A DNA stretch of 64,000 nucleotides, taken from IMG/VR virus record IMGVR_UViG_3300028888_000054; one strand, given 5' to 3'. The DNA is from a virus. Lineage: Duplodnaviria > Caudoviricetes. This document shows, piece after piece, positions 7,459-53,355 of this stretch. The notes beneath the pieces are model-generated. The model was not told where the DNA came from, searched no databases, and saw only the letters and a list, made by a program, of their open reading frames with translations. The number at the start of each line of letters is the position of its first letter. The stretch's first letter is position 1. The position numbers were made by a program, and so were the translations under genes.

Positions 7459-9051
7459 TTACACCTCTTCTAATTTATTTTCTTCAATTTTTACATTAGC
7501 TCCGCTTGTGGCAAGCATAACACCAACAACAGAATTAGCATTTTTTAGAGCTTCTGTCTGAACCTTTAACGGCTCAATGATACCCATATCATATGCTTCA
7601 CCATATTCTCTTGTTTTTGCGTTGTAAGCTAAACCTTTTTCGATACAGTTGTTGTAAATAACATCGCCGTTTTCACCAGCATTTTTCGCAATCTGTTTTA
7701 ATGGTGCCTTTAAAGCTTCTTTAATAATCTTAGCTCCACGTCTCATATCTTCTGTTGGATAGTCTTCATCATTAATTGACAAGTCTTCTCCAATTCTTGC
7801 GTAGTTAATTCCTGCTCCTTCAACAATACCACTTTCAAGAGCTGCCCTTACCGCACAAATTGCATCATCGGCTCTGTCTTTTATTTCCTTTGCCTCTGTT
7901 TCTGTTGGTGCACCAATCTTAATTGTTACCGCAGAACCAGTAAAACGTGCAATGCGTTTCTCCATATTTTCTTTGTCTTTTGTAGACTTCAAATTTTCTT
8001 TCTGATTTTTAAGTGTTTCAACATAAGCATCAATAATTTTCTGCTCGCCCTTTCCGCCAATGATTGTTGTCTCTATTTTTGTAACTTTAACAGTTTTTGC
8101 TTCTCCTAAAAATTCTGGTCCGCAATCTTTTAATTCGGCTCCAGTTGCATCTGTGATAAGGGTAGCTCCAGTAATTGTGGAAATGTCGTTTAACCAATCA
8201 AGTTTTGTTGAAGCATAGCCTGGGCATTTTGTTGCGGCAACCTGAATGTTTCCACTAAGCAGGTTGAGAACAATGATATTCAAAGCCTCGCCCTGAAGTT
8301 CATCACAAACAATAAACAATGGTTTCTTTTGCTCTGCAGCGGCTTCCAAGAATGGAACAATTTCATCTGCTAATGAAATCTTTTTATCTGTTAAAAGAAT
8401 CAAAGCGTCTTCAAAATTTACTTCCATTTTGTCTTTATTGTTTACAAAATAAGGAGACAGCCATCCACTTCCAAAAGTAAAACCATTACTCTCTTCAATT
8501 TCTATTTCTGTTCCGCGAGTTGTTTCTGCATGAACTACACCATCTTTACCAGCAATTTCAAAACCTTTAGCGACAAACCCTCCAAGAACTTCATCATTGT
8601 TTGCTGAAATAGTTGCAACCTTTTCGATGTCACTTTGTGTTTTAAGTTCTGTTTTAGTTTGTTTAAGCTTCTCAATAACAAAAGAAACTGCTCTATCCAT
8701 ACCACGTTTAAGCTCAATTGGCTGACAACCAGCCTCAATTGCTTTATAACCGTCTTTTAACATTTCGTAGCCAAATACAACAGTTGTGCTAGTTCCATCA
8801 CCAGCATTTTCATTTGTTTTTAGAGCAGCCTCTCTAACAACAGAAGCTCCAAGATTTTCTGCTGGATCTTTAAGCTCTATATCTTTTGCAACTGATACAC
8901 CGTCTTTTGTAATGTTTGGTGTATTATATCCAACTGTAGCAAAAAAACGACCACAAGGACCAAGTGTAGAGCCAACAGCTTTTGCCATTTTTTCAGCACC
9001 TGCCAACCATTTTTTTCTTAAATCTTCATCAAAATATATTTCTTTCTTCAT
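7459..9051 (-). CDS. groEL: phage-encoded GroEL/Cpn60 chaperonin
   Basis: STLGP, ITKDGVSVA, AGDGTSTT, GIVEGAG; no C-terminal GGM tail. Confidence 0.95.
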   Translation of the reverse strand: MKKEIYFDEDLRKKWLAGAEKMAKAVGSTLGPCGRFFATVGYNTPNITKDGVSVAKDIELKDPAENLGASVVREAALKTNENAGDGTSTTVVFGYEMLKDGYKAIEAGCQPIELKRGMDRAVSFVIEKLKQTKTELKTQSDIEKVATISANNDEVLGGFVAKGFEIAGKDGVVHAETTRGTEIEIEESNGFTFGSGWLSPYFVNNKDKMEVNFEDALILLTDKKISLADEIVPFLEAAAEQKKPLFIVCDELQGEALNIIVLNLLSGNIQVAATKCPGYASTKLDWLNDISTITGATLITDATGAELKDCGPEFLGEAKTVKVTKIETTIIGGKGEQKIIDAYVETLKNQKENLKSTKDKENMEKRIARFTGSAVTIKIGAPTETEAKEIKDRADDAICAVRAALESGIVEGAGINYARIGEDLSINDEDYPTEDMRRGAKIIKEALKAPLKQIAKNAGENGDVIYNNCIEKGLAYNAKTREYGEAYDMGIIEPLKVQTEALKNANSVVGVMLATSGANVKIEENKLEEV

Positions 9052-9098: not shown

Positions 9099-10421
9099 TT
9101 AATCTCCAAGAGCCTCAGACATTTCTTGTTCAAGACTTGTTGCCATATCTTCAAAAGAATTTCCATCTTCTTCGCCAACGTCTTCGGTAAACTCTGTTAA
9201 GTCTCCCTTACCCAAGGCGGCTGCTTTTCGTTCTTGTCTCATTCTTTCCTCGGCTTCATCAAGCAAAGGTTGAAGTTTATCTATGTATTCTTCTTCGTGT
9301 TCTGCAAAAACTTTTAAAAAGTCTTTCTTAAAGAAAGGAGTATCTATAACACCAGGAACAACATATCTGTTTCCTGACTTTTCTGCAAGTTTAAAATCTA
9401 TAAGAAGCTTTAACATTCCTGAGTTTCTAACTGGCCCATAAGCCAAATCAAGAATAAACCAACAGTTTCTTCCCTCTGTTCCAAAACGAGATTTCGTAGC
9501 TGTTGCTCTAATAATCTTCATAGAATTACCAAGAGAAGTTTTTCTTCTTTCTTTTTCCTTGTCCTCTGTTGCTGTATCTATTTCTTCCGAAGAAGCCATT
9601 TCTTGAAGTTTTAGATTTAAAGACGGATTATAAATAACAGACTGACCACCAGCCATTACCCAAGGATCATACTGATTACCAATGTTTGTATAAACCTTAG
9701 ACGCAAGCAATACTGTCGCTCCGATTTCATTAAGCTCATCGTCGAGAGCAAACAAGTTGTTTAGCAATTTACCTGTAAGTCCCATATCCTGAACACCATC
9801 TACCTTTGTTCTGAAAGGCTTCATGTTAGAAATAGAGTCAACGATAATAAGAATCTTTTCTTTAGACCCTCGATATTTCATAGCATAAACTAATTTTTTC
9901 AAATAACAAAGAAGTCCACGAACATAAGTATATTTTTCTGTTACTAATTTAGAAGGAACATCTCTATCGTTTATCGCTTCCATTTTATCAGGATTATCAT
10001 TTGCAACCCTATAAGAATCAAGAGTAGAAATGTTTACATATCTTACTCTATCAAGCGGCGCATCAACAAACTTAAACAAGCCTAAACCTGTTCCTCCACC
10101 TTCGGAATCGATAAGGACAATTCTATCAAACTGATAAAAATCTACATTATTCCACTGCTTTGCCCTTGAAGCTACGGCAGGCATTAAAGATTTACCTGTT
10201 CCCGAAAGTCCCCAAAGATTAGAAATTCTTCCACCAGGATAACCACCTCTAAGTTTCTTTGAACAAAGGTAGTTAAGAGCCCAGTTTCCAGTATCTACAT
10301 AATAATCAACAGTATCGTCAACTTTTGATAAATCCTGCATTTCTGTAAATTCTTGCTCAATAATCGAATCAAAAACTGATACATTTTCTGCCACTTCTTT
10401 TTCTTTCTTTTTGGCTGCCAT
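9099..10421 (-). CDS. uvsX: UvsX/RecA-like recombinase
   Basis: DTGNWALN, Walker A GLSGTGKS, IIVDS, AGG, KSRF. Confidence 0.88.
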   Translation of the reverse strand: MAAKKKEKEVAENVSVFDSIIEQEFTEMQDLSKVDDTVDYYVDTGNWALNYLCSKKLRGGYPGGRISNLWGLSGTGKSLMPAVASRAKQWNNVDFYQFDRIVLIDSEGGGTGLGLFKFVDAPLDRVRYVNISTLDSYRVANDNPDKMEAINDRDVPSKLVTEKYTYVRGLLCYLKKLVYAMKYRGSKEKILIIVDSISNMKPFRTKVDGVQDMGLTGKLLNNLFALDDELNEIGATVLLASKVYTNIGNQYDPWVMAGGQSVIYNPSLNLKLQEMASSEEIDTATEDKEKERRKTSLGNSMKIIRATATKSRFGTEGRNCWFILDLAYGPVRNSGMLKLLIDFKLAEKSGNRYVVPGVIDTPFFKKDFLKVFAEHEEEYIDKLQPLLDEAEERMRQERKAAALGKGDLTEFTEDVGEEDGNSFEDMATSLEQEMSEALGD

Positions 10422-10723
10422 TAATTGCTCCTTACACTAACTTCCGAAGAAGTCATTTTAGCTCCACCGTTTATTTTTTGAGCGTTTTTTTCTTGAGGTT
10501 TTTTTTCTTTTTTTGAAACTTTTAAAACTTCCCCATTTTCCATTTCGATTTTTGCATCTTTATCAAGATAAATTTTATTTTCATCTGGCTTACCATGAAT
10601 AAGCTCAACAACAAAATCAAAAACTGCTTTAATTAAAGCATAAGCAAATAGCATAAAAATAAAAGCTCCAACAAGCGCCCAAAACGGATGACTAAATACA
10701 AAATTATTTAAAAAATTTTCCAT
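10421..10723 (-). CDS. small membrane-anchored hypothetical protein
   Basis: N-terminal hydrophobic helix. Confidence 0.5.
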   Translation of the reverse strand: MENFLNNFVFSHPFWALVGAFIFMLFAYALIKAVFDFVVELIHGKPDENKIYLDKDAKIEMENGEVLKVSKKEKKPQEKNAQKINGGAKMTSSEVSVRSN

Positions 10724-11782: not shown

Positions 11783-12385
11783 TTAAAGCCATTTGACGAT
11801 TGTATCGCCTTTATAACCTTTCTCCCATACATACTGACAATAGCAGATTGCGCTTGAACTTCCATCATCTACTCCGTCTTTCCAACAATTTACTCTTTCT
11901 GAATTTACTAATACAAATTTTGGTGGATGTTTTTCAAACAGTTTTTTTCTTGATTTTCCTTCAAGAAACTGAACTCTTAATAAGAATATAAGTTTATCAC
12001 CGTCTTTCATTAAGTCAAGTGCTTTTTCAACGGAAGCCTGGGCAAGTTTGTAAGGAGGATTACTTATAATAGCATCTGAACCATTTCTCATTTCTGTTTC
12101 TTTAAAAAAATCAATTCCTGTATCGCCAAACCCTCTATCAATTAAATCTGAATTTGCTACAACATTAAATCCATTTTCTTCTAAAACTTTTGTTATAGCT
12201 CCGTTTCCGCAAAAACTTTCCCAAATTTTCCAATTTTTACAATCTGGGTAATTTTCTTCTAACCACTTAACTAATTTTTTTGTTGCTGCAGGATCTGTCG
12301 AGTAAAAACCATTAGGCTCTTGAAATTTTTGACTCCCGTTTTTAGTCCCAAGAGTAACTAGCACCCCATGTGTTTTATTATCCAT
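11783..12385 (-). CDS. DNA adenine methyltransferase (small phage type)
   Basis: FYST, WESFCGNG (motif I), ISNPPY (motif IV). Confidence 0.8.
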   Translation of the reverse strand: MDNKTHGVLVTLGTKNGSQKFQEPNGFYSTDPAATKKLVKWLEENYPDCKNWKIWESFCGNGAITKVLEENGFNVVANSDLIDRGFGDTGIDFFKETEMRNGSDAIISNPPYKLAQASVEKALDLMKDGDKLIFLLRVQFLEGKSRKKLFEKHPPKFVLVNSERVNCWKDGVDDGSSSAICYCQYVWEKGYKGDTIVKWL

Positions 12386-13286
12386 TACTTATTTCCTCCT
12401 TTAAAATTTTTTCTATATTAGAAAAATCTAAATATGAAATTTCTAACTCTCTAATACCATTTTTCTTACAAAATTGCCTTTTAACTTCATCTTTTTCTTT
12501 TCTAAGAGAAAGTCCTTCTAAACCTCCCCAACCGTCGACAACATTATAATGCTGTTCTCCTTGATACTCAATTAAAAGATTTTTAGACGGAACATAAAAA
12601 TCAAAAGGTAACTTTTTTTTATATTTGCAGTCTTCGAACTTAAACTGAGCAAAATAATCTTTACCTTCTTTATATCCATTTTTAGCAAACCAATGTCTTA
12701 TTCTTTTTTCGCCAGCCGACTCTCTGCATTTAGGGCATCCATGTTTTTTTAGATGTATTCTTGGTTCCTGCTCGAAAACACCATGCTTAGGGCAAATAAT
12801 TTTTATTTTTGTATTTGCATTTTTATAATCTACTAAACTATAATTATATTTATCGTCATGAACTTCTTTTGCCTTTTTAATAAACTCTTCGGTAGTTGGC
12901 TTATATTTTTTTGCACATTTTGGACATCCTTGCTTTTGCCCTAAGTGTCTATGAACAGTTTGCTCAAAAACTCCATGAACTGAACAAATTATTTTTATTT
13001 TTTCTTCCGTTAGGTATTTTTTTTCTAAATCAACTAAACTGTAATCATATTTATCACCATGAAGTTTTTTTGCTTGTTTTACAATTTCTTCTCCCTTTTT
13101 TGAACTTTTACATCTTTTACATCCGCAGCCAGCTAAATGATGGTGTGGAGTTTGTAAAAAATAAATTTTACAATTTTTACAAAAAATAGTTAATTTATTT
13201 TCATAACCCACATAAACAGTTTTGCTATAATCATATTTATCACCATGAATTTCTTTTGCTCTTTTAATAAATTCTTCCGTTGTCAT
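12378..13286 (-). mobile_element. free-standing homing endonuclease (DUF723-type Zn repeats + PD-(D/E)XK/Vsr-like C-terminus)
   Basis: Repeats TTEEFIK.AKE.HGDKYDYS...CPKHG.F.Q...H...GCPKC; C-terminal LPFDFY...IEYQGEQHY. Confidence 0.8.
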
Positions 13287-32789: not shown

Positions 32790-32816
32790 TAAAAAAGGCT
32801 ACCATTTCTGGTAGCC
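32790..32816 (-). terminator. intrinsic terminator directly followed by a TTGACT -35 box
   Basis: GGCTACCA-GAAA-TGGTAGCC-TTTTTT-A-TTGACT; nearly the same stem occurs at 48620-48649. Confidence 0.8.
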
Positions 32817-37406: not shown

Positions 37407-37415
37407 GTAATTAAC

Positions 37416-38390
37416 TTATGAGATTTTTAATAACATTGTGCATATTTTATAAACATCATCTAAAGAAATTCGTTTTCTACCATGATCTCTATAATTAGTA
37501 AAAATCAAATCTCCATAAAAGTATCTGTTTCCATCTACAAAAGCATTAAACTCATTTACTAATTTTATTTGTTGTTCTGGGGTTAAATCCTTTTCGCATT
37601 TTAAAGTAGCAAAAATTCTGTCATTCTTTTGCCCCTTATAAACATATCCTGGTTTATATTCTAGGCCAAAATGTTTGGTTCGAGTATCTAAACATCTAAC
37701 GTAAATATTAGTATTTGCTGGCTCGTCACCAATCACGCGCGAAAATATAGATTTAGTTCTTTTAAAGAAATCAAAAATTTCCCCACCAATCCTATAGCCA
37801 TATTTTCCATTTAAGCTGATTGGTATTTTATTACCGTTTCCCCCATTATTAAAAACAACTATACTGTTATCTTCCTGCTTGCCTTTTTTAAAATGAAAAG
37901 AACAAACATTGTAAGTAGTGTTTTTAAATACTTGATATGTAAAATAGTTTACATAATCCACATGATACTGAGAAAAGAATTTTTCTCTTACTTCTCTTGT
38001 TGCTTCGTCTGTAAAAAAATTAAGTGGGATAATTAAAATTCCTTCTTCACAGCCCATTATGCTTAATATAGAAGCTTTATACAAATCATCGGTTTGATAC
38101 TTATCAAAAATTTCTTTAAATTGATCTGTTTTATTTTTTGCCAAATAAGGTGGATTTGTAATTACAACTTTACCTGTATAATCAATTGGATTTAATAAAC
38201 TATCTCTATACTTTACTCTTGGGTCTTTTACATCTATATCGTAAAGTTCCCAATTTGTGTTTGGGGAGTATTCAAAAAGATCGCAAGCGCCCGCAAAAGG
38301 GTCTACTGCCTCTTGCGGGTAAAAATCTATCCCTTGTAAAATTTCTTTATAGTTTTCTGTAAAATGCTGCGTTTTTTTTAAATCACTCAT
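37416..38390 (-). CDS. gamma-class N6-adenine DNA methyltransferase
   Basis: QHFT, VDPFAG, YDID, ITNPPY, DDLYK. Confidence 0.85.
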   Translation of the reverse strand: MSDLKKTQHFTENYKEILQGIDFYPQEAVDPFAGACDLFEYSPNTNWELYDIDVKDPRVKYRDSLLNPIDYTGKVVITNPPYLAKNKTDQFKEIFDKYQTDDLYKASILSIMGCEEGILIIPLNFFTDEATREVREKFFSQYHVDYVNYFTYQVFKNTTYNVCSFHFKKGKQEDNSIVVFNNGGNGNKIPISLNGKYGYRIGGEIFDFFKRTKSIFSRVIGDEPANTNIYVRCLDTRTKHFGLEYKPGYVYKGQKNDRIFATLKCEKDLTPEQQIKLVNEFNAFVDGNRYFYGDLIFTNYRDHGRKRISLDDVYKICTMLLKIS

Positions 38391-39347: not shown

Positions 39348-39774
39348 AATCCTTTACATAGTGCTGCCCTGGATCGAGCTCTTTATCTTCTGGTTCTAGT
39401 GCTTGCGACATAACTGGAGAAGAAGTATAATATACTGGATTTACCCCATACATCCCCGTCTGGGCAGAATTACGGCATGCCCACATAAATGAAGACGCAA
39501 CTTGCGGATCAAAAAAGCGTATTCGAACTTCAGCTGCTTGCATATTAGGGTCGTATCCTGCAGCCTCTATGTTACAACTTTCAAGCATCCATGAGTTTGG
39601 ATTATTTAATAAAACTTCTGCAATATTTTGACTACTGAGCGTCATTGCTTGCTGCTGCACTTGTGCCCTAAGATTAGACATATCTGCTAAATAATCTTGA
39701 TAAACACCGATACTTGACGTAAGTTCTATATTATTTCTTTTTAAAGCTTCTATAACTTTTTGCGAAATCCCCAC
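39334..39774 (-). CDS. hypothetical protein
   Basis: GTG start coupled to the stop of dnaE part 3. Confidence 0.5.
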   Translation of the reverse strand: MGISQKVIEALKRNNIELTSSIGVYQDYLADMSNLRAQVQQQAMTLSSQNIAEVLLNNPNSWMLESCNIEAAGYDPNMQAAEVRIRFFDPQVASSFMWACRNSAQTGMYGVNPVYYTSSPVMSQALEPEDKELDPGQHYVKDFGDD

Positions 39775-41300
39775 TAATTACTCCTTGGCTGGTATCTAAC
39801 AAGCATCGCCCTAATAGTATCTGGATTTGTAACCCAGTTTCTACTTCCAAACAAAATACCACCATTATCATCTGGATAAACTTTCATAAGATAAAAACCC
39901 GTCAAAAGTTTTTCCTTTATATGTTCATAGTATGACGCAAAGCAAGGAATTGTCAACTCCTCTCCGTTGCAATCTTCAGCAGTTATAAAAACCATCATCT
40001 TTCCATTCTTCTGCTGATGACATCTTAAATCTTTTACATGAACAAATACATAAGCAGATGCCTTATCTTCTTCACGAATTTCATTAAAATCTCTTAAACA
40101 CTTATTAAGAGATTTTAATTTTTCAATTTTTGCAACCATATCATCTGAGAATACTCCGTGAAAGAAACTACCACTAAGATAATTCTTTTCCATTTCCATA
40201 TATTCTTCATTTGAGGTCTTACCATCTAAATAATGATCTTCTACACATTTTTCCCAAACTTCTCTAAGTTTGTCTGGATTTTTGCTTGTCTTTTTATCAA
40301 CATAAAATTGCTCTGTGATTTTAAGATACTTTTTTCTTTCACCTTCAGGTATTAAATCATCAAAAGCACCACCACCAATTAAAGCAAGAGTGATTCTCTT
40401 ATTAACCTTAGTTCCAAGAGTTTTAATTATAAAATCAATAATACTCTTATAACCACCTTCTCTATGTTCTATAATGTTCTTTGCTGGTTCTTCACCAACA
40501 CCTTTAATTTCATTAAGCCCAAATCTTATTTCTTTTTCAGAAATTGGAGTAAAGTGAAGATTAGAACTATTTACATCAGGTGGCAAAATTTTAAAACCAT
40601 TTTTTTGAGCAGATTTAATAGAATCTTTTATAACATCATTTTTTGTTGCGTCATATGTTAAAGATGCAGCCCAAAAATATGGTTTAAAATAACGAGACAT
40701 ATAAAGAGTCTCACAAGCAACATAAGTATATGCGGCGGCGTGAGATTTATTAAAAGAATAAGCTGACAAAGTAATAAGATCTGCAGTAAACTCATCAATT
40801 TCCGCAGTTGTTAATTTACTCTTCGCTTCTTCTTTAATTGTATTAACCAATTTATCCCAAGCGTCCAAATCTTCTTGCTTTTTATTTGCCTTACCGAGTT
40901 TCTTCAAAAGTCCACGCGCGTAATTACCCTTTATTTTTCCATTTGAGAGATCTTCTACGAGTTTCATAATCTCCTCTTGGAAGAGGATACAGCCATGAGA
41001 ATCTTTCAAGAATTTAGATATAGGCTCTGGATACTTTGATCCTTCCGTTCCGTTTGCCACGAAGTCGTCAAACGAGAACGAAGAACCTGGTCTCGACAAA
41101 GCATTTAAACAAGTGAGTTCGTCAAAGTTTTGAGGAATTGCTCTCTGAATCATACCAGATGCAGTATTACCTGAAAACTGAAATATATTCGCTTGACTCT
41201 CATTTACTTGTTGGTATAACTGTTTATCTTCATAAGACATTCCATAATATAAAAATTCTTTTAATTCTTGCTTACTGACATTTTCTTGTAAAATTTTCAT
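39774..41300 (-). CDS. dnaE: DNA polymerase III alpha (family C), part 3: fingers, HhH, OB
   Basis: IFQF, LNALSRPG, ILFQEEIM, YSFNKSHAAAY, PPDVN.S, FGLNEIKGVG; ATG at 41300 preceded by AGGGGT. Confidence 0.9.
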   Translation of the reverse strand: MKILQENVSKQELKEFLYYGMSYEDKQLYQQVNESQANIFQFSGNTASGMIQRAIPQNFDELTCLNALSRPGSSFSFDDFVANGTEGSKYPEPISKFLKDSHGCILFQEEIMKLVEDLSNGKIKGNYARGLLKKLGKANKKQEDLDAWDKLVNTIKEEAKSKLTTAEIDEFTADLITLSAYSFNKSHAAAYTYVACETLYMSRYFKPYFWAASLTYDATKNDVIKDSIKSAQKNGFKILPPDVNSSNLHFTPISEKEIRFGLNEIKGVGEEPAKNIIEHREGGYKSIIDFIIKTLGTKVNKRITLALIGGGAFDDLIPEGERKKYLKITEQFYVDKKTSKNPDKLREVWEKCVEDHYLDGKTSNEEYMEMEKNYLSGSFFHGVFSDDMVAKIEKLKSLNKCLRDFNEIREEDKASAYVFVHVKDLRCHQQKNGKMMVFITAEDCNGEELTIPCFASYYEHIKEKLLTGFYLMKVYPDDNGGILFGSRNWVTNPDTIRAMLVRYQPRSN

Positions 41301-41307
41301 GATTAAA

Positions 41308-42180
41308 TTATACCCCTGAAGCTTTATTTTGTAAATATGATTTTGATACAATTTTTACAATCCCATCGTCGTCTTCAATCTTTACAAGCTCTTCATCTAC
41401 AGATTCTACAGCATTTGAAATTACTTCCAAAACTGTAATTGCCAAAAAGTCATACTTAATTACTCCAAGTTCATCCAACTCTGTGTTTCCACCATTTTCT
41501 ACAAACGCAGATGCTACTCCATCCTTTGTATGAACAACTGGAATATATTCCCAAACTGGTTTATCCATAATAAGACATCCACCTGCGTGCTGACCAACCT
41601 GACGCACCTGTCCTATAATTTTTGGAGTAAAGTCCAAATATGCTTTATTTCTCTCGTAAGTTTCATAAAGAACTGGATGATTTTCTGCATACATTTTCAT
41701 ATTTTCTTCAAAGCTCAACTCTTCATCAAGTTCCTTACAGAAATCATTACTCTCTTTAAATGGCACTTCACACTTTCTGAGAATATCCTTAATTGCAGAA
41801 GCTAAACCAACTGTTCCATAAGCCGCTACGCCCATTACTCTTTCGGGGCCATACTTTTCAATAAGCATTTGCTTTGCAGCTTCTTTTGCTTTTGGCTCGA
41901 AGTCTGTATCAATATCCAAACCACCAGAACCGCCACGTTTAATCTGAACAATTTCAAGAGGCTTTGATAAATCTACTTTGTCTGTTTTACCCAAAAAGAA
42001 CGGAAGAACATATCTATCATCGCATCTTTTTTTTGAATTTAAAATTTCATCAGCTATATTTATTTTTTCATCTTCTAATAACCACTTTGCTCTTCTTAGC
42101 TCTTTAAGAGCACGATCTTTATATTCTGGATACTCTTTTATTTTTTGAGCAACTAATTTCTTTAAATCTTCAAAAGTCAT
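41308..42180 (-). CDS. dnaE: DNA polymerase III alpha, part 2: catalytic palm/thumb
   Basis: LDIDTDF, EKYG, RQVGQHAGG, IKYDFL. Confidence 0.9.
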   Translation of the reverse strand: MTFEDLKKLVAQKIKEYPEYKDRALKELRRAKWLLEDEKINIADEILNSKKRCDDRYVLPFFLGKTDKVDLSKPLEIVQIKRGGSGGLDIDTDFEPKAKEAAKQMLIEKYGPERVMGVAAYGTVGLASAIKDILRKCEVPFKESNDFCKELDEELSFEENMKMYAENHPVLYETYERNKAYLDFTPKIIGQVRQVGQHAGGCLIMDKPVWEYIPVVHTKDGVASAFVENGGNTELDELGVIKYDFLAITVLEVISNAVESVDEELVKIEDDDGIVKIVSKSYLQNKASGV

Positions 42181-43124
42181 AAATTTTCCTCTAAAATTTC
42201 TTCTATAATTTTATAATCCCAATAAGGAATTGTCAATAATTTTATTTTTTTATTTTTTGCAAAACACTTTTTTATATCATCTCTTTCTTTTTGCTCTAAC
42301 AGATTTTTATTACCGCCAAAATAATCTATCGGTTTATAATGTTGCACACCTTGATACTCAATTAAAAGATTTTTGGAAGGAATGTAAAAGTCAAATGGTA
42401 ATGGTTTTTGGGCTTTTCCGCAACAATCTTTGAAAATAAATTCTTGATTATAACTTATTCTTTTTGCTTCTAAGTAGACTCTAATTTTTCTTTCACCTTT
42501 ACTTTCTCTGCATTTTGGGCAACTGTTATTCTGGTTTTCAGAAATATGATGCATTGGTGTTTGAAAAAAACTTCCGTGTTTTGGGCAAATAATTTCTATT
42601 TTTGTATGATTATTTATATAATTTACTTTTGAGTAATCATATCTATCACCATGAATTTCTTTTGCTTTTTTAACAAACTCTTCTGTTGTTAATCTTCTTT
42701 TTAAGGATCTATCATCTTGAGCGCATTTTGGACACTTATCTCCGCTTAAATGATTTGTTGGTGTTTGAAAAAAACTTCCATGTTTTGGACAAATAATTTC
42801 TATTTTTGTTTTTGCATTTATATAATTTACTTTTGAATAATCATATTTATCTCCATGAACTTCTTTTGCTTTTTTAACAAACTCTTCTGTTGTTAATCTT
42901 TGCTTTTCCCCTTTTTCTTTAAGTTTTTGTTTTCCACAGTCTGGGCACCCTTGTCCTCTAAAATGCTGTCCAGGAGTCTGTTTAAAAGAACCATGTTTTG
43001 GACAAATAATTTCTATTTTTGTTTGATAATTAACATAATTAACCATTGAATAATCATATTTATCACCATGAACTTCTTTTGCTTTTTTAATAAATTCTTC
43101 TGTTGTTAATTTTTTAGTAGTCAT
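42177..43124 (-). mobile_element. free-standing homing endonuclease (DUF723-type repeats x3) inside the dnaE locus
   Basis: Three LTTEEF.KKAKE.HGD.YDYS...CPKHGSF.QTP..H repeats; LPFDFY...IEYQGVQHY. Confidence 0.82.
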
Positions 43125-43162
43125 ATATTTATCTTGTTACCGATCGAACTTTTATAACAAAT

Positions 43163-44410
43163 TTATCTCTCGTTAAAATAATCATATTTTACACTCACTA
43201 ATCTTTCAGAAGATACAAACCTTTCAAACAATAATCCAAGTTTAATTGGATCAATTACCCAAGAAGTAATTCCAAGACAAGCACAAGTCAAACTTCCACC
43301 TGCAGAACCGCGCCCACTTCCAAGCATATACTCCTGCTGTTTTGCCCAATTAATTACAGAAGACAAATTCAACAAATAACGATAAGCACCCTTCTTTAAA
43401 AGAGTCTCAAGTTCTAGTTCAAGTCTGTCCTTATATTCTTGTGGACAATCATCATAATCACAACCAAAATGCTTTGCCAGTCCTTCTTTTGCAAGTTTTA
43501 CAAAATCTTCTTCCTCATCAAAAGAGAATCTTGGCAACTTCATACCTGTCCCCAAAGGAATAACAAAATTGCACTTTTCTGCAATCTTATCTGAATTTGC
43601 ACACCATTCTTCTATTTGTTCATCTGTGTATCCATAATTCCAACCCTTGTTAAACTGCTTGAAATCATCTACGCTCTGATAGAACAATGATTTACACTTG
43701 TATGTATCATCTCCTTCTGAATCTTCATCTTTTCTAAGATTGAAAATAAATCTCTGAGTTTGCGCACCTTCTCTTGTTGCATAATGCACGTCGCCCGTAA
43801 TTACAACGGGAACGTTATATTTTTCTGCAATTTTTATAATCCAATCATTATATTTCTTTTGGTCTTCTACAAGTTCGTTTAACTGAATTTCGGCATAAAA
43901 GTTTTCGCCAAACTCATCAACAAATCTTTTAAAATAAGCTTCTGCTTTTTCTTCATTGCCTGCAAGAACGCATTGAGAGAATATAGATGCCAAACAAGCC
44001 GAGCCTACAATTATCCCTTCTTTGTATTGAAACAATTCTTCAAATGTATTTCTTGGTTTATAATAAAAGTGATCTTCATCAATGTTTGAGATATAATTCA
44101 AATGACAAAGATTTTTCCAACCAGTTTCATTAGAAGCCAAAAGAATAATATGATTATAATGAGTTCTCTTTCTTTTCTTACCTTCCATTGTTACCAATTC
44201 TTCTACAAGATATCCTTCCATTCCGAGAATTGGTTTTACACCTTTTGAAATTGCATACTGTTGAAATTTAAAAAGTCCAGACATCATTCCGTGGTCTGTT
44301 AAGGCAAGCGCTTTATGCCCATTATTTACTGCCTGATCTACTAATTCTGTTACTGAAGATACAGCGTCATAAAATGACCCCTCTTTACTATGAACATGTA
44401 AATGAACCAT
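43163..44410 (-). CDS. dnaE: DNA polymerase III alpha, part 1: PHP domain to GS motif
   Basis: HLHVHS, TDHG, G.E, H, SACL, GDVHY, GSGRGSAGGSL, LLFERF; start MVHLH at 44410 after GAGGTG. Confidence 0.92.
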   Translation of the reverse strand: MVHLHVHSKEGSFYDAVSSVTELVDQAVNNGHKALALTDHGMMSGLFKFQQYAISKGVKPILGMEGYLVEELVTMEGKKRKRTHYNHIILLASNETGWKNLCHLNYISNIDEDHFYYKPRNTFEELFQYKEGIIVGSACLASIFSQCVLAGNEEKAEAYFKRFVDEFGENFYAEIQLNELVEDQKKYNDWIIKIAEKYNVPVVITGDVHYATREGAQTQRFIFNLRKDEDSEGDDTYKCKSLFYQSVDDFKQFNKGWNYGYTDEQIEEWCANSDKIAEKCNFVIPLGTGMKLPRFSFDEEEDFVKLAKEGLAKHFGCDYDDCPQEYKDRLELELETLLKKGAYRYLLNLSSVINWAKQQEYMLGSGRGSAGGSLTCACLGITSWVIDPIKLGLLFERFVSSERLVSVKYDYFNER

Positions 44411-44432
44411 CTTTTCACCTCTTTTTCTTTTA

Positions 44433-44476
44433 ATTATACCACAAATAAAAAAAGCAGTCAAGACTGACTGCTTTTT
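44433..44476 (-). promoter_or_regulatory. terminator hairpin whose 3' arm is the -35 box of the dnaE promoter
   Basis: AAAAAGCAGTCAG-TC-TTGACTGCTTTTTTT; TTGACT-N17-TATAAT. Confidence 0.78.
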
Positions 44477-47061: not shown

Positions 47062-48555
47062 ATGCTTACAAATAATTTAGTTGATAAAGCGCGTTTTGAA
47101 GAGCAGCTTAACGACCGTTGGTCTTGGATCACAGAAGACATCGAAGATGCCGAAACAAGACTTAATACTCAATTGGTTCTTGAAAACTCATATAGATATA
47201 TGATTCAAGAAGGTTCTATTGCACGCAACTGGCTTGAAAATAACATTCTTTCAGAAGAAGTTATCGAAGAAGCGCCACAGATGAGAGGAGCAGTTGGTGA
47301 TTATGTAATCCCTAAAGTAATGTTCCCAATCATCAGACGTGTTATGCCAGAACTTATTGCTAACAAATTGGTTTCAGTTCAGCCAATTCAGCAGCCAACT
47401 GGTGTAATTTACTACATCAATTACGACTACTCAAATGACAAGGGAACTATCAAAGCAGGCAACGAATTCTCTGGTGCACCACAGCAGACAACTCCAGCTT
47501 TCGCTACATGGTACTCTTCAGAAAAAATTGGACCTTTTGTTGCAAAAACAGATAAATCTACTGGTGTAGTTGACTTCGGTGCACAAACTGGTATCACAAA
47601 CTTCTTGGGAACAAACCCAGCTGAATATAAAATTAAACGTTTCGAAGTTTACAACAGAACAACAGGTAAAGCAATCGCTACTGTTTATGGTGGAAGCAAA
47701 GATAACGTAACATTTGACCCTGCAACTGGTGCTATTACAGTAACAGTTCCAGCATCAGCATTCTTCGGCGACGAAGATAATGAATTTGAAGCATTCTTGG
47801 TATACGATCAGGAAGGAACTTCAAAGATTCCAGAGATGGAATTCCACATCGACCACATGAACGTTGAGACAACTGAACGTAAATTGAAGGTTAGATGGAC
47901 TAAAGAAGCTGAACAGGATATGATGGCTTATCACAAGATCGACGTAGAACAGGAGCTTGTAAAAGTTGCTTCTATTCAGACAAACTACGAAGTAGACCGT
48001 GAAGTTATCAGATTCATTGATGATCATATCATCTCTGACCTTTCTCAGATTCACAACTGGACAGACGACGCAGCAACTACAGGTAATAATACACAGGGTA
48101 ACTACCTTGATAGACACCGCTGCTTGGCACAGAAACTTTATGCTGCTTGTACAAAAGTAGCTACATTCAACCACCTTGGACCATGTGATTGGGCAGTTGT
48201 ATCTCCAAAGATTGCAGCAGTTCTTCAGATGCTCCCAGACTGGAAAGCAGGTGAAATCGCTAGTGGTAAATCAACTTACTACAATGCTGGTACACTCGGA
48301 AACGGTTCTTTGGCAATCTACGTTGATCCAAACAGATGCGGTGCTCAAGAAGACGAAATCACTCTTGGATACAAATCTAAGGATTCAACATACGGTGCTG
48401 GTGTAGTTTACTCACCATACGCTAACTGGATGTCAGGAACAGTTGTTAACCCAGACAACTTCAACAACGTAAGAGGATTCTTCAACAGATATGCTATTTC
48501 TATGGCACCTCGTGGAGAATACAACTACGCAAGAGTTAGAATTAACAACTTGTAA
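47062..48555 (+). CDS. major capsid protein (T4 gp23-like)
   Basis: PIIRRVMPELIA..LVSVQP..QPTG, IPEM.F, RKLK..WT.EAEQD..A.H.ID.EQEL, E.DRE, GYK, YSPY, F..RY; strongly biased codons. Confidence 0.95.
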   Translation: MLTNNLVDKARFEEQLNDRWSWITEDIEDAETRLNTQLVLENSYRYMIQEGSIARNWLENNILSEEVIEEAPQMRGAVGDYVIPKVMFPIIRRVMPELIANKLVSVQPIQQPTGVIYYINYDYSNDKGTIKAGNEFSGAPQQTTPAFATWYSSEKIGPFVAKTDKSTGVVDFGAQTGITNFLGTNPAEYKIKRFEVYNRTTGKAIATVYGGSKDNVTFDPATGAITVTVPASAFFGDEDNEFEAFLVYDQEGTSKIPEMEFHIDHMNVETTERKLKVRWTKEAEQDMMAYHKIDVEQELVKVASIQTNYEVDREVIRFIDDHIISDLSQIHNWTDDAATTGNNTQGNYLDRHRCLAQKLYAACTKVATFNHLGPCDWAVVSPKIAAVLQMLPDWKAGEIASGKSTYYNAGTLGNGSLAIYVDPNRCGAQEDEITLGYKSKDSTYGAGVVYSPYANWMSGTVVNPDNFNNVRGFFNRYAISMAPRGEYNYARVRINNL

Positions 48556-48581: not shown

Positions 48582-48612
48582 ACCCCGTTCTTTTTGAACG
48601 GGGTATTTTTTT
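48582..48612 (+). terminator. capsid gene terminator
   Basis: ACCCCGTTC-TTTTT-GAACGGGGT-ATTTTTTT. Confidence 0.8.
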
Positions 48613-48619
48613 GTCAAAT

Positions 48620-48649
48620 AAAAAAGGCTACCAATTTGGTAGCCTTTTT
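48620..48649 (-). terminator. flagellin gene terminator
   Basis: AAAAAAGGCTACCAA-T-TTGGTAGCCTTTTT, bidirectional appearance. Confidence 0.8.
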
Positions 48650-48694: not shown

Positions 48695-49543
48695 CTATTT
48701 TAACAACGCTAATACATTTTGTGATTGAGAATTTGCTTGTGACAACATAGCCACAGATGACTGTGAAAGAATCTGCTGCTTTGTATACTCTACCATTTCA
48801 GTAGCCATATCTGCATCTCTCACTCTTGATTCTGCAGCTTGTGTGTTTTCTGCTGCTATGTTAATACCTTTCTGAGCCATCTCCATTCTGTTCTGATAAG
48901 CGCCAAGATCTGCTCTCTGCTTATTTACATTCTTTAAAGCTTCGTCAAGAGTTGTAATTGTTACATTTGCCTCGTCAGGTGATGAAATAGAAATCTGATT
49001 ATCTTCACCCTGGACACCTTTCAACCCAAGAGCTGAAGCTGTCATTGTTCCAATATAAGCACGAATGTTTTGGTCAACATTTGCACCAACCTGGAATTGC
49101 ATTATACCATCAGACTCTCTTGAAAATCTACCAGTCAAAAGGTTCATTCCGTTAAACTGAGCAGAAGAAGCAATTCTATCTACTTCAGCAACAAGCTGAG
49201 AAACTTCTACCTGAATCTGCATTCTGTCTTCATCTGAGTATACACCATTTGAAGCCTGAACTGCAAGTTCGCGAATTCTCTGAAGAACATCAGTTGTTTC
49301 TGCAAGATAACCTTCTGCTACCTGAACAAAAGAAACTGCATCGCCAATGTTTCTTGAAGCTTGACTAAGACCTCTAATTTGAGATCTCATTTTTTCAGAT
49401 ACAGCTAAGCCAGAAGCATCATCTCCTGCTTTGTTAATTCTTTCACCGCTTGAAAGTTTTGCCATTGAGTTCTGTAAGTTTGCTGCATTAATTCCTTCTT
49501 GGCGACTAGCAAACAAACTTGCCATATTGTTATTTATTACCAT
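48695..49543 (-). CDS. flaB: flagellin, spirochete FlaB-type (282 aa, no D2/D3)
   Basis: [83 protein letters not shown]. Confidence 0.97.
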
Positions 49544-49547
49544 AGAC

Positions 49548-49563
49548 TACCCCTCCTTGGGTA
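49548..49563 (-). promoter_or_regulatory. CsrA-type hairpin with the SD in an AAGGAG hexaloop
   Basis: Minus strand TACCC-AAGGAG-GGGTA-GTCT-ATG. Confidence 0.6.
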
Positions 49564-49569
49564 TAAAAA

Positions 49570-49597
49570 ATATCGACAGATTTCTCTGCCGACTTTA
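49570..49597 (-). promoter_or_regulatory. sigma28 (FliA/SigD)-like promoter overlapping a GAAA-loop hairpin
   Basis: TAAA-N16-GTCGATAT vs consensus TAAA-N15/16-GCCGATA(A/T). Confidence 0.6.
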
Positions 49598-49604
49598 ATT
49601 TAAC

Positions 49605-50141
49605 TTAGATTAAATCTTCTCTTCCAATGAACGTCAAAGCCTTTGCACGGTTCTTGTGAATCTTATCATAATTAGGATATGACAATTTGCTTGTTCCACG
49701 AGTGTGAGAATAAATCTCTGGGAAGAAATAGCATCTTGATCTGATGTAGAAGAAGTTCCACAAATCCAAATCTTTATTTTTTATGGCTCTTCCGTCCTTT
49801 CCTTCCTTGCGGGCGATAGCATCTTTCAATGCCTCTGCAACACCAACGATTGGCACATCGTCATCTTTGTTTGACTTGTAAACAGAGCCGATAAACACTT
49901 CTCCGTCTTCGCCCTTAATCGCTACCAATGTTCCGCGTGGCTTTGTTCTTTCAAGCTGGAGTCTTCCGTTTCCAACTTCCTTTCCAATGAACCCGTCACG
50001 AATTCTCAAAGAAATGAAACCGTTGTTTCCATGCTCCTTTCTAAATTCATCAACGAACTTCTGTGCTTCATCTCGTGCCTTATTACGAGCTTCTCTTTTC
50101 TCTGCTGCTCTCTTCTTAGCAGCTTCTTCAAATTTATTCAT
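49605..50141 (-). CDS. hypothetical basic protein
   Basis: 178-aa ORF with strong SD (AAGGAG) and capsid-like codon bias. Confidence 0.65.
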   Translation of the reverse strand: MNKFEEAAKKRAAEKREARNKARDEAQKFVDEFRKEHGNNGFISLRIRDGFIGKEVGNGRLQLERTKPRGTLVAIKGEDGEVFIGSVYKSNKDDDVPIVGVAEALKDAIARKEGKDGRAIKNKDLDLWNFFYIRSRCYFFPEIYSHTRGTSKLSYPNYDKIHKNRAKALTFIGREDLI

Positions 50142-53090: not shown

Positions 53091-53355
53091 TACTCTTTTG
53101 CCTCTTTAATTCCTTTTTCATTAAAAATCTTTCTAAGAGAGTCAATTGCTTCCCCCATCATTTTAGAAGCCTCTTCTACTGTTGGGGCTTCTGTTGTAAC
53201 ATCCATTTGACCTGCGCCCTTAGCAGTCTGTTTAAAATTAAGTCTAGCCCTTGTATTAGGAACATTTACATTTTCTTCCATAACTTTTCTCCTTTCTTGA
53301 TTAAATTATACATATGCCAATAAATTATGTCAAGTTAATTATATTGGAGACTTAA

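Follow-up and report, generated by a model that had tools for sequence, protein, structure and literature searches.

The window analysed here is a 64,000-nucleotide stretch of phage DNA (Caudoviricetes; IMG/VR virus record IMGVR_UViG_3300028888_000054), and the element of interest within it is flaB-P, an intact flagellin gene that lies tail-to-tail with the gene for a T4-like major capsid protein (Table 1). A full 282-residue FlaB-type flagellin in this arrangement had been described in an original prediction, which a model made from the letters alone, and Pfam matches and coordinates confirm both the gene and its orientation; each point of that description of the sequence open to checking proved right. 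The Flagellin_N profile aligns with residues 3-139 (4.8e-43, 147 bits against a cut-off of 26.6, profile positions 1-137 of 139), and Flagellin_C aligns with residues 197-281 (2.5e-25, 89 bits against a cut-off of 23, profile positions 2-86 of 86). Both terminal helical domains of bacterial flagellin are complete and exceed the curated cut-offs; only a short loop region separates them, and there is no outer domain. The protein also matches phrog_16088, which is annotated as 'unknown function' (2.9e-53).

The two solved structures that match flaB-P best, with almost the same score, are 9pil, a 285-residue flagellin chain (382.8 bits), and T. denticola FlaB3 (10pp_A, 382 bits), with lower scores for FlaB1 (10pl, 373 bits) and a third Treponema chain (9pim, 363 bits). 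As a D0/D1-only protein within the length range of about 280-286 residues that is nearer to FlaB3 than to FlaB1 or FlaB2, flaB-P falls into the FlaB3 orthogroup. Its numbering coincides with that of T. denticola FlaB across the first 140 or so residues, and the motif strings quoted in the original prediction are all present and align with the T. denticola FlaB chains. By alignment, flaB-P retains the four FlaB3 O-glycosylation sites (S115, S126, T137, and T167, which is T166 here) and each of the longitudinal and lateral filament-contact residues Q88, R91, E92, D106, R219, E221, and R240 (site list from PMC13439194). FlaB3 forms the unsheathed distal filament and is probably the last subunit added (PMC13439194); the phages therefore probably took the paralogue able to lengthen a filament already in place with no need of sheath proteins. 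The phage clade differs by fixed substitutions at nineteen positions, with clusters at residues 11-26 in D0-N (including Y11F and L16E) and 67-76 in ND1 (QNG to GDA at 67-69, plus 73, 75, and 76), together with residues 220 and 224. The counterpart of B. subtilis Hag N255, a residue that we take to be required for FliW binding, is N233 in flaB-P (matched by hand), and N233 and the surrounding segment are invariant. Judged by its sequence, flaB-P is a complete, phage-adapted FlaB3-type core flagellin of Treponema periplasmic flagella.

Rumen and gut Treponema carry three flagellin paralogues, a tandem pair (FlaB1-type upstream, FlaB3-type downstream) and a separate FlaB2-type gene. In a maximum likelihood tree of 57 rows (LG+C20+F+G4), the 22 phage or metagenome rows group without exception in a single clade (support 100/95) that is sister to 21 of the 22 Treponema FlaB3-type genes (96/92), and the phage clade plus the FlaB3-type genes (Treponema paralogue A) split from the FlaB1-type and FlaB2-type genes at 100/99. 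A larger quick tree agrees. The comparison with Treponema FlaB paralogues that had been proposed as a check thus places flaB-P in a separate phage clade. Near-identity to a host gene, which would have pointed to a contaminant, was not observed: with one genome per GTDB species, the nearest cellular genes come from T. bryantii and related metagenome-assembled genomes (MAGs) and are of FlaB3 type, at 71-77% identity. At least 120 clusters in a large protein database share 84-100% identity with flaB-P (one cluster was found in 60 blocks of the collection). For eight of these clusters the genomic setting was looked up, and each time it proved to be phage-like DNA, with contigs spanning 180-590 kb and at least eight different gene neighbourhoods; every context examined for proteins of 84-94% identity to flaB-P was phage-like, and further carriers of the flaB-P type are present in IMG/VR.

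The possibility that the locus is an artefact, either a chimeric assembly or host DNA fused to a phage contig, was evaluated by looking for the same junction elsewhere. Two JGI contigs encode an identical flaB-P protein, and on one of them the gene upstream is the same as well. In contigs from other samples (ENA and Logan) a 94%-identical flagellin stands between the capsid gene and the 178-aa, radical-SAM, and dUTPase genes, and on two IMG/VR contigs whose capsid gene is 96% identical the flagellin is likewise tail-to-tail with it. A chimeric assembly is excluded, because the junction recurs in several independent assemblies. The divergence from cellular genes, a G+C content at third codon positions (GC3) that matches the phage, and a terminator module shared with a second phage locus also speak against an artefact, to which we assign a negligible probability.

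Pairwise ratios of nonsynonymous to synonymous substitution rates (dN/dS) among the phage flagellin copies are 0.06-0.16 (median 0.13), compared with 0.09 for host FlaB3-type genes, and flaB-P is under purifying selection over its full length. The window and L003 (L numbers denote related phage loci) have flagellins that are 94% identical and capsid proteins that are 82% identical, the flagellin being the better conserved of the two. The codons of flaB-P are AT-rich, as had been noted, with a GC3 of 0.25, which falls between the extremes of the other tested phage genes (0.21-0.39). Flagellin GC3 in other carriers tracks each carrier's own base composition, and the gene has therefore resided for a long time in each phage. 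The description of flaB-P as domesticated, and not a chromosomal contaminant, is borne out by the phage-only clade, the dN/dS values near 0.1, the carrier-specific GC3, and the shared terminator module.

The carriers do not belong to a single phage family. The gp23-like capsid proteins of the window and of a complete 386-kb carrier are 21-26% identical; their flagellins are 84% identical. A complete 301-kb carrier gave no gp23-type capsid match, and most carriers share nothing detectable with the window outside the flagellin over the 6-8 kb on each side. In other phages the neighbours of the flagellin gene are genes for anaerobic ribonucleotide reductase, topoisomerase I, PTH2, and STAS-domain proteins and not structural genes. 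Synteny is kept in close relatives of the window (capsid 96% identical), but distant members of its capsid lineage (39-63% identity) have no flagellin beside the capsid gene, and five larger records of that lineage lack a flagellin altogether, one of them a 208-kb record with an estimated completeness of 88%. Capsid adjacency was accordingly discarded as a clue to function, other carrier phages having the flagellin elsewhere. The simplest history suggested by these sequences is one old capture of a Treponema flaB3-like gene, followed by a phage-restricted lineage passed between phages, in which flaB-P appears to travel, as a small cassette, among jumbo and mega phages that are only distantly related.

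Several individual loci add to this picture. In L151:3887-4714(-) and L152:4657-5484(-) the capsid gene is 96% identical to that of the window (dS 0.21), but the flagellin allele is only 64% identical (dN 0.34, dS 1.25); its branch, inside the phage clade, measures 1.17 substitutions per site, and it alters the otherwise invariant residues G40K, E50T, R53K, Q55M, E238N, and R242E. Just the last 40 or so flagellin nucleotides and the terminator are the same as in the window, and this allele was therefore swapped in by recombination. A 142-kb IMG/VR contig (L104:6001-6813) encodes a second, unrelated flagellin of 270 residues (47% identical) with a two-hairpin CsrA-type leader; phages have therefore captured flagellin more than once. 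On L135, a phage contig with a flagellin, a eukaryotic-type topoisomerase I (Topoisom_I_N, Topoisom_I; L135:13489-14852) is accompanied by an anaerobic ribonucleotide reductase that is split by a GIY-YIG domain (L135:1075-4428).

The 61-bp spacer upstream of flaB-P contains TAAA, 16 nt, GTCGATAT, and then AAGGAGG 8 nt before the ATG. The first part corresponds to the class III pattern TAAA-N15/16-GCCGATAA directly upstream of the gene, a sequence match only, in which the window -10 reads GTCGATAT; a perfect -10 GCCGATAA is present in the nearest relatives (L002 and L007). Three matches to the sigma28 pattern occur in 64 kb (0.95 expected) and that of flaB-P is the only intergenic one, the other strong promoters of the window being perfect sigma70 types. 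The strict motif precedes flaB in 6 of 16 distinct phage regions; these represent the window class, L094/L095, and L098, three lineages in all, and L010 and L100 have a TTAA variant that falls outside this count. Among 150 host flaB3-type and flaB1-type genes none has the motif upstream; CTAAA-N16-CCGA(T/C)A is found some 120 nt upstream of the host flaB2-type genes. In T. denticola, flaB2 has a mapped sigma28 promoter, whereas flaB1, flaB3, and flaA are sigma70-dependent (PMC9481697). The flaB2-like motif, missing from the host flaB3 and flaB1 types, indicates that a FlaB3-type protein has been put under what looks like FlaB2-type transcriptional control. The sigma factor of the 386-kb phage is of the general sigma70 family and not FliA-type.

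A terminator-like hairpin that ends the upstream gene overlaps the sigma28-type promoter, with one stem pair that is G-U in the window and G-C in L002 and L007; by its position this hairpin should insulate flaB-P from read-through. The Shine-Dalgarno sequence of flaB-P lies in the loop of a second, small hairpin that resembles in architecture the second CsrA-type hairpin of host flaB leaders (fold -6.4 kcal/mol, no better than shuffled). Host FlaB1-type leaders have two hairpins with AGGA or AAGGAG loops, which is CsrA-site architecture, and a two-hairpin leader of this type is also found in the phage relatives L099, L100, L104, and L013. A similar promoter, a CsrA-type leader, or both are present in other phage lineages of the clade. 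The proposal that the gene is wired into host flagellar regulation holds at the level of sequence, with a flaB2-like sigma28-type promoter that recurs upstream of phage flagellins in unrelated contexts. In L002 and L003 the 178-aa gene is separated from the sigma28 promoter by an inserted 130-aa open reading frame (ORF) of unknown family, with its junction exactly at TTAAAGTCGGC; this ORF is absent in the window (49544-49606) and in L001, and the flagellins of these strains are identical or 94% identical.

Seven other phage context classes have, no more than 4 kb from flaB, a gene for a homologue of the flagellar sheath protein FlaA; two of these homologues were recognised by Pfam and the rest by BLAST or hidden Markov model (HMM). 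In L100 and L099 the gene that lies directly downstream of flaB matches Pfam FlaA (3.4e-10 and 1.2e-8, both above the cut-off), and related signal-peptide proteins are encoded near flaB in L105, in L011-13/L133/L137/L106, in L135/136, in L096, and in L008/9. The FlaA-like proteins are about 245-290 residues long, with a signal peptide at the start in those examined. None was found in the window, L003/4, L010, L094/95, or L151/2 loci. The carriage of FlaA beside FlaB argues, as far as gene content can tell, that these phages build filament and do not merely perturb regulation.

Table 1. Coordinates of flaB-P, its signals and neighbours in the window, and of FlaA-like genes at other phage loci
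Feature	Position	Strand	Basis or remark
flaB-P, intact 282-aa D0/D1-only flagellin, FlaB3 type	48695..49543	minus	Pfam, PDB matches, tree, dN/dS
Sigma28-type promoter, TAAA-N16-GTCGATAT	49570..49597	minus	Motif search; sequence match only
Terminator-like hairpin and T-run ending the upstream gene	49562..49593	minus	Terminator scan
Shine-Dalgarno AAGGAGG, 8 nt before ATG, in small hairpin loop (UACCC-AAGGAG-GGGUA)	49552..49558	minus	
Intrinsic terminator of flaB-P (GGCTACCA AAT TGGTAGCC and T-run, then TTGACA)	48614..48649	minus	Terminator scan
gp23-type major capsid protein, convergent neighbour	47062..48555	plus	Pfam Gp23 8.8e-56, phrog_138
Intrinsic terminator of capsid gene	48582..48613	plus	Terminator scan
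178-aa ORF, no known family, upstream neighbour of flaB-P	49605..50141	minus	Own sigma70-type promoter (50190-50162)
FlaA-like, downstream of flagellin	L100:6961-7773		
FlaA-like, downstream of flagellin	L099:7501-8331		
FlaA-like, downstream of flagellin	L105:8705-9538		
FlaA-like, downstream of flagellin	L012:9359-10201		
FlaA-like, downstream of flagellin	L135:7933-8793		
FlaA-like, downstream of flagellin	L096:~9819-10607		
FlaA-like, downstream of flagellin	L008:~11805-12548		

flaB-P and the capsid gene are parted by a 139-bp spacer that contains one intrinsic terminator for each strand. The stem GGCTACC...GGTAGCC followed by TTTTTTATT(T)GAC matches the window only at 48626 and 32797 (2 found, 0 expected), in agreement with the earlier observation that the flagellin gene has its own terminator with a stem nearly identical to that of the one at 32797. 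The duplicated module (32797-32816 and 48626-48644) consists of the same 8-bp stem, the T-run, and then TTGAC. In the copy at 32797 the TTGACT serves as the -35 in a sigma70-type promoter for the next gene, and at 48626 no same-strand gene follows. An acidic scaffold-like gene precedes the capsid gene, and the 178-aa ORF is also found upstream of flaB-P in L003 and L010.

The GC content of the window is about 32% throughout, and no tRNA genes were found in it. Apart from the flagellin and capsid region it is taken up by a replication module of the large-phage kind, with a GroEL-like chaperonin (7459-9051(-), phrog_5725, 2.1e-133), a UvsX-like recombinase, a DnaB-like helicase, an NAD-dependent DNA ligase, SbcC, SbcD, a flap endonuclease, a dUTPase, a methylase, and a family C DNA polymerase in pieces. 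The alpha subunit of this polymerase is divided into three ORFs within 39774-44461(-), comprising the PHP and N-terminal part (43163-44461), the middle (41308-42180), and the C-terminal part (39774-41351). A zinc-finger/DUF723 endonuclease-like ORF (42177-43124) separates the first and middle pieces and has a paralogue at 12378-13286. No integrase was found among the 28 window ORFs scanned, and the phage is apparently a virulent, jumbo T4-like one. The heptamer AAGTTAA is rarer than chance in the window (19 found against 36 expected; for example at 49600-49606, 53332-53338, and 37411-37417), with several copies just 5' of start codons, where it may be a phage promoter or translation signal. 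A role as a late motif was rejected on account of this under-representation and since no copy precedes the capsid/scaffold operon.

The reading that we favour, with a probability of about 0.5, is that the phage delivers filament subunits by way of host sigma28, FliS, and flagellar export machinery. Host RNA polymerase with sigma28 (FliA) would transcribe flaB-P from the candidate promoter, shielded by the hairpin from the upstream phage operon. Host FliS would chaperone the product, the host flagellar type III apparatus would export it, host enzymes would glycosylate the four FlaB3 sites, and flaB-P would then polymerise at the distal end of the periplasmic filaments. The phage would thereby govern the supply or make-up of filaments, and hence the motility of the infected cell, during a long jumbo-phage infection, and this control would persist even if the sigma70-driven expression of host flaB3, flaB1, and flaA drops. 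We infer expression, export, filament incorporation, and a benefit to the phage from sequence evidence. Filament supply is preferred because of the selection on the whole protein, the kept assembly and glycosylation residues, the choice of FlaB3, the class III signals, and the FlaA partners in other phages. Of the functions that had been suggested for flaB-P, incorporation into host filaments is the best supported, by the kept residues and by flaA in sister phages.

A number of points weigh against filament supply. The absence of flagellin from distant relatives means that it is dispensable for the capsid lineage of the window. In the complete 386-kb IMG/VR phage (L096:6001-6845) the flagellin reading frame is broken by a 1-nt shift near codon 44 (GDDA, a stop, after which the frame resumes), which makes it either a pseudogene or an assembly error. 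A search with tblastn and an HMM built from the phage FlaA-like proteins found no FlaA gene in the 64 kb covered of a genome of about 190 kb, and the leader of the window has the Shine-Dalgarno hairpin alone, the first CsrA-type hairpin being absent. The host is probably a gut or rumen Treponema, as read from gene phylogeny, GC content, and promoter type alone. When 19.6 kb of the window was compared with 301 Treponema genomes for CRISPR spacers, short matches were found at chance level only; a few phage-like contigs are binned in Treponema MAGs, with a capsid region of about 74% nucleotide identity to the window, and these matches do not establish the host. Filaments are stable, and the reason for which an infected cell would need new flagellin is not obvious. 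Finally, the 19 or so clade-fixed substitutions could signify altered function rather than plain supply.

The original prediction had also proposed that flaB-P titrates FliW. Cytoplasmic flaB-P would bind host FliW and free CsrA, which would repress flagellin and possibly other mRNAs and leave resources to the phage, with filament incorporation secondary. We consider this unlikely, though several observations agree with it. In T. bryantii fliW-csrA lies about 6 kb from flaB3-flaB1, with fliS elsewhere; neither the window nor the phage loci nor four IMG/VR records yielded FliW, CsrA, or FliS, and the window contains no FlaA-like gene either, as expected from the earlier statement that no other flagellar genes are nearby. 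The binding residue N233 and its segment are kept, and a structure model of flaB-P with Treponema FliW supports binding, with a predicted interface centred on residue 233 and a score of 0.78 compared with 0.00 for the best of three controls. Of 80 solved complexes 58 attained that mark, as did 2 of the 110 mismatched pairs (runs agree on at least 49% of contacts; partner pLDDT, the predicted local distance difference test score, at least 83). A similar flagellin-FliW complex has been characterised (PMC6070490), and the model's pass may show likeness rather than proof. With the Shine-Dalgarno hairpin only, the flaB-P mRNA may itself escape CsrA, and 9 of the 19 phage-specific substitutions coincide with stretches of B. 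subtilis flagellin that are shielded by FliW (p=0.023; PMC6070490). An altered FliW face was nevertheless dropped as a main argument, as this enrichment is modest and not reproduced by the modelled interface, which leaves out the substitution clusters at 11-26 and 67-76. Counted against titration, too, is the finding that 72 residues at the N-terminal end of B. subtilis flagellin suffice for FliW binding (PMC6070490), whereas purifying selection here acts on the whole protein, including the glycosylation and polymerisation residues. The full two-hairpin leaders of the four phage relatives would make flagellin copies self-limiting, which would defeat a sponge, and the sheath gene in seven context classes would be useless to one. 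Titration of FliW is possible for the window, where the first CsrA-type hairpin has been lost, but it is not an explanation for the whole clade.

Still less probable, in our estimate, is that flaB-P is an altered subunit that co-polymerises with host FlaB and changes the shape or stability of the filament or caps its growth, so that the motility of infected cells is reduced or redirected, for example to keep them among susceptible neighbours. The clustering of clade-fixed substitutions in D0-N and ND1 would suit such a role, and the divergent L151 allele at the same locus indicates that a phage flagellin can drift to new properties. However, the window allele keeps all of the contact residues checked and the four glycosylation sites, its dN/dS is as low as that of host genes, and FlaA beside FlaB in other phages suggests building and not blocking. 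A function outside host flagella, as a virion component or in modulating animal TLR5 signalling, is very improbable. flaB-P does adjoin the capsid and scaffold genes in the window phage, but it is on the strand opposite the capsid operon with its own sigma28-type promoter, other phages place the flagellin beside non-structural genes, and 72-77% identity to host FlaB3 over the full length marks a flagellin and not a re-purposed fibre. The TLR5 epitope segment is kept in flaB-P, as had been pointed out in support of a signalling role. The same segment is also required for filament formation, and its retention therefore says nothing about TLR5; spirochete flagella, moreover, are periplasmic. The TLR5 proposal is thus not upheld.

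flaB-P belongs to a FlaB3-derived phage lineage and is not a cellular flaB3. It resembles Treponema FlaB3 (T. denticola, PDB 10PP; PMC13439194, PMC9481697) in being D0/D1-only, about 282-285 residues long, and provided with the same glycosylation and contact residues, but it is phage-borne, at most 77% identical to cellular copies, and in a separate sister clade with about 19 clade-specific substitutions. Treponema flaB3 stands in the tandem flaB1-flaB3 and is sigma70-dependent in T. denticola, whereas flaB-P is a lone gene with a sigma28-type promoter like that of flaB2. The expectation that flaB-P represents an undescribed system has to be narrowed, since a prophage flagellin, FliC-P, has been published together with TldR (Enterobacter phage FR-phi; PMC13418256, bioRxiv 10.1101/2023.11.30.569447). 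FliC-P, which its authors call the first known prophage-encoded flagellin, likewise has an intact D0/D1 core and replaces or supplements host flagellin (PMC13418256). It is encoded by a temperate lambda-like prophage of enterobacteria with external flagella, unlike the jumbo T4-like, apparently virulent window phage and its presumed periplasmic flagella, and it has large divergent outer domains (D2-D4) where flaB-P has none. TldR and a guide RNA silence host fliC in that system; in the window no TnpB/OrfB (TldR) family was found among the flaB-P neighbours or the 28 ORFs scanned, a guide RNA not having been searched for, and control is apparently through host sigma28 (and CsrA in relatives). 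The benefits shown for FliC-P, motility and lower TLR5 activation, go to the lysogen. What is new in flaB-P relative to FliC-P is the phage type, the host, the flagellar architecture, the apparent control by host signals, and the horizontally spreading phage-restricted clade.

A further parallel is provided by the psbA-type auxiliary genes of large virulent cyanophages, which are captured host genes under purifying selection that form phage-specific clades, are exchanged among phages, and are thought to sustain a host function during infection. Their product is metabolic or photosynthetic, whereas that of flaB-P is a subunit of a secreted, self-assembling motility organelle that needs the host export apparatus, chaperone, and glycosylation. 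Twelve INPHARED phage records contain flagellin-like sequence at most 54% identical to flaB-P (at most 44% over the full length); these come from Bacillus, Listeria, enterobacterial, or unassigned faecal contigs, are unannotated, and none belongs to the Treponema FlaB3 clade. No literature linking flagellin to jumbo phages or to Treponema phages was found. Published phage-encoded flagellin is confined to temperate enterobacterial prophages with TldR, and Treponema phages are almost unpublished.

flaB-P presents a virulent-looking jumbo phage with a flagellin for a periplasmic organelle that is beyond the reach of flagellotropic phages and TLR5. Given this periplasmic location, the explanations offered for FliC-P, immune evasion and receptor change, do not transfer, and the case points instead to phage control of infected-cell motility or flagellin homeostasis. 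More broadly, and somewhat short of an even chance, we tentatively propose that the jumbo and mega phages of gut and rumen Treponema share a phage-evolved 'periplasmic-flagellum kit', swapped as a cassette among unrelated phage lineages, with which they may rebuild or sustain the internal flagella and steer swimming. Such a kit would always include FlaB and often FlaA, with a sigma28 promoter and a CsrA leader as class III control signals of host type, and the window would hold its FlaB-only, T4-like version. The questions that this opens are how viruses use sigma28, FliW-CsrA, and flagellar export, and why phages took FlaB3. With at least 120 clusters, exchange among phages whose capsids barely align, and recognisable host signals, the family is abundant and offers a workable system in which to pursue them.

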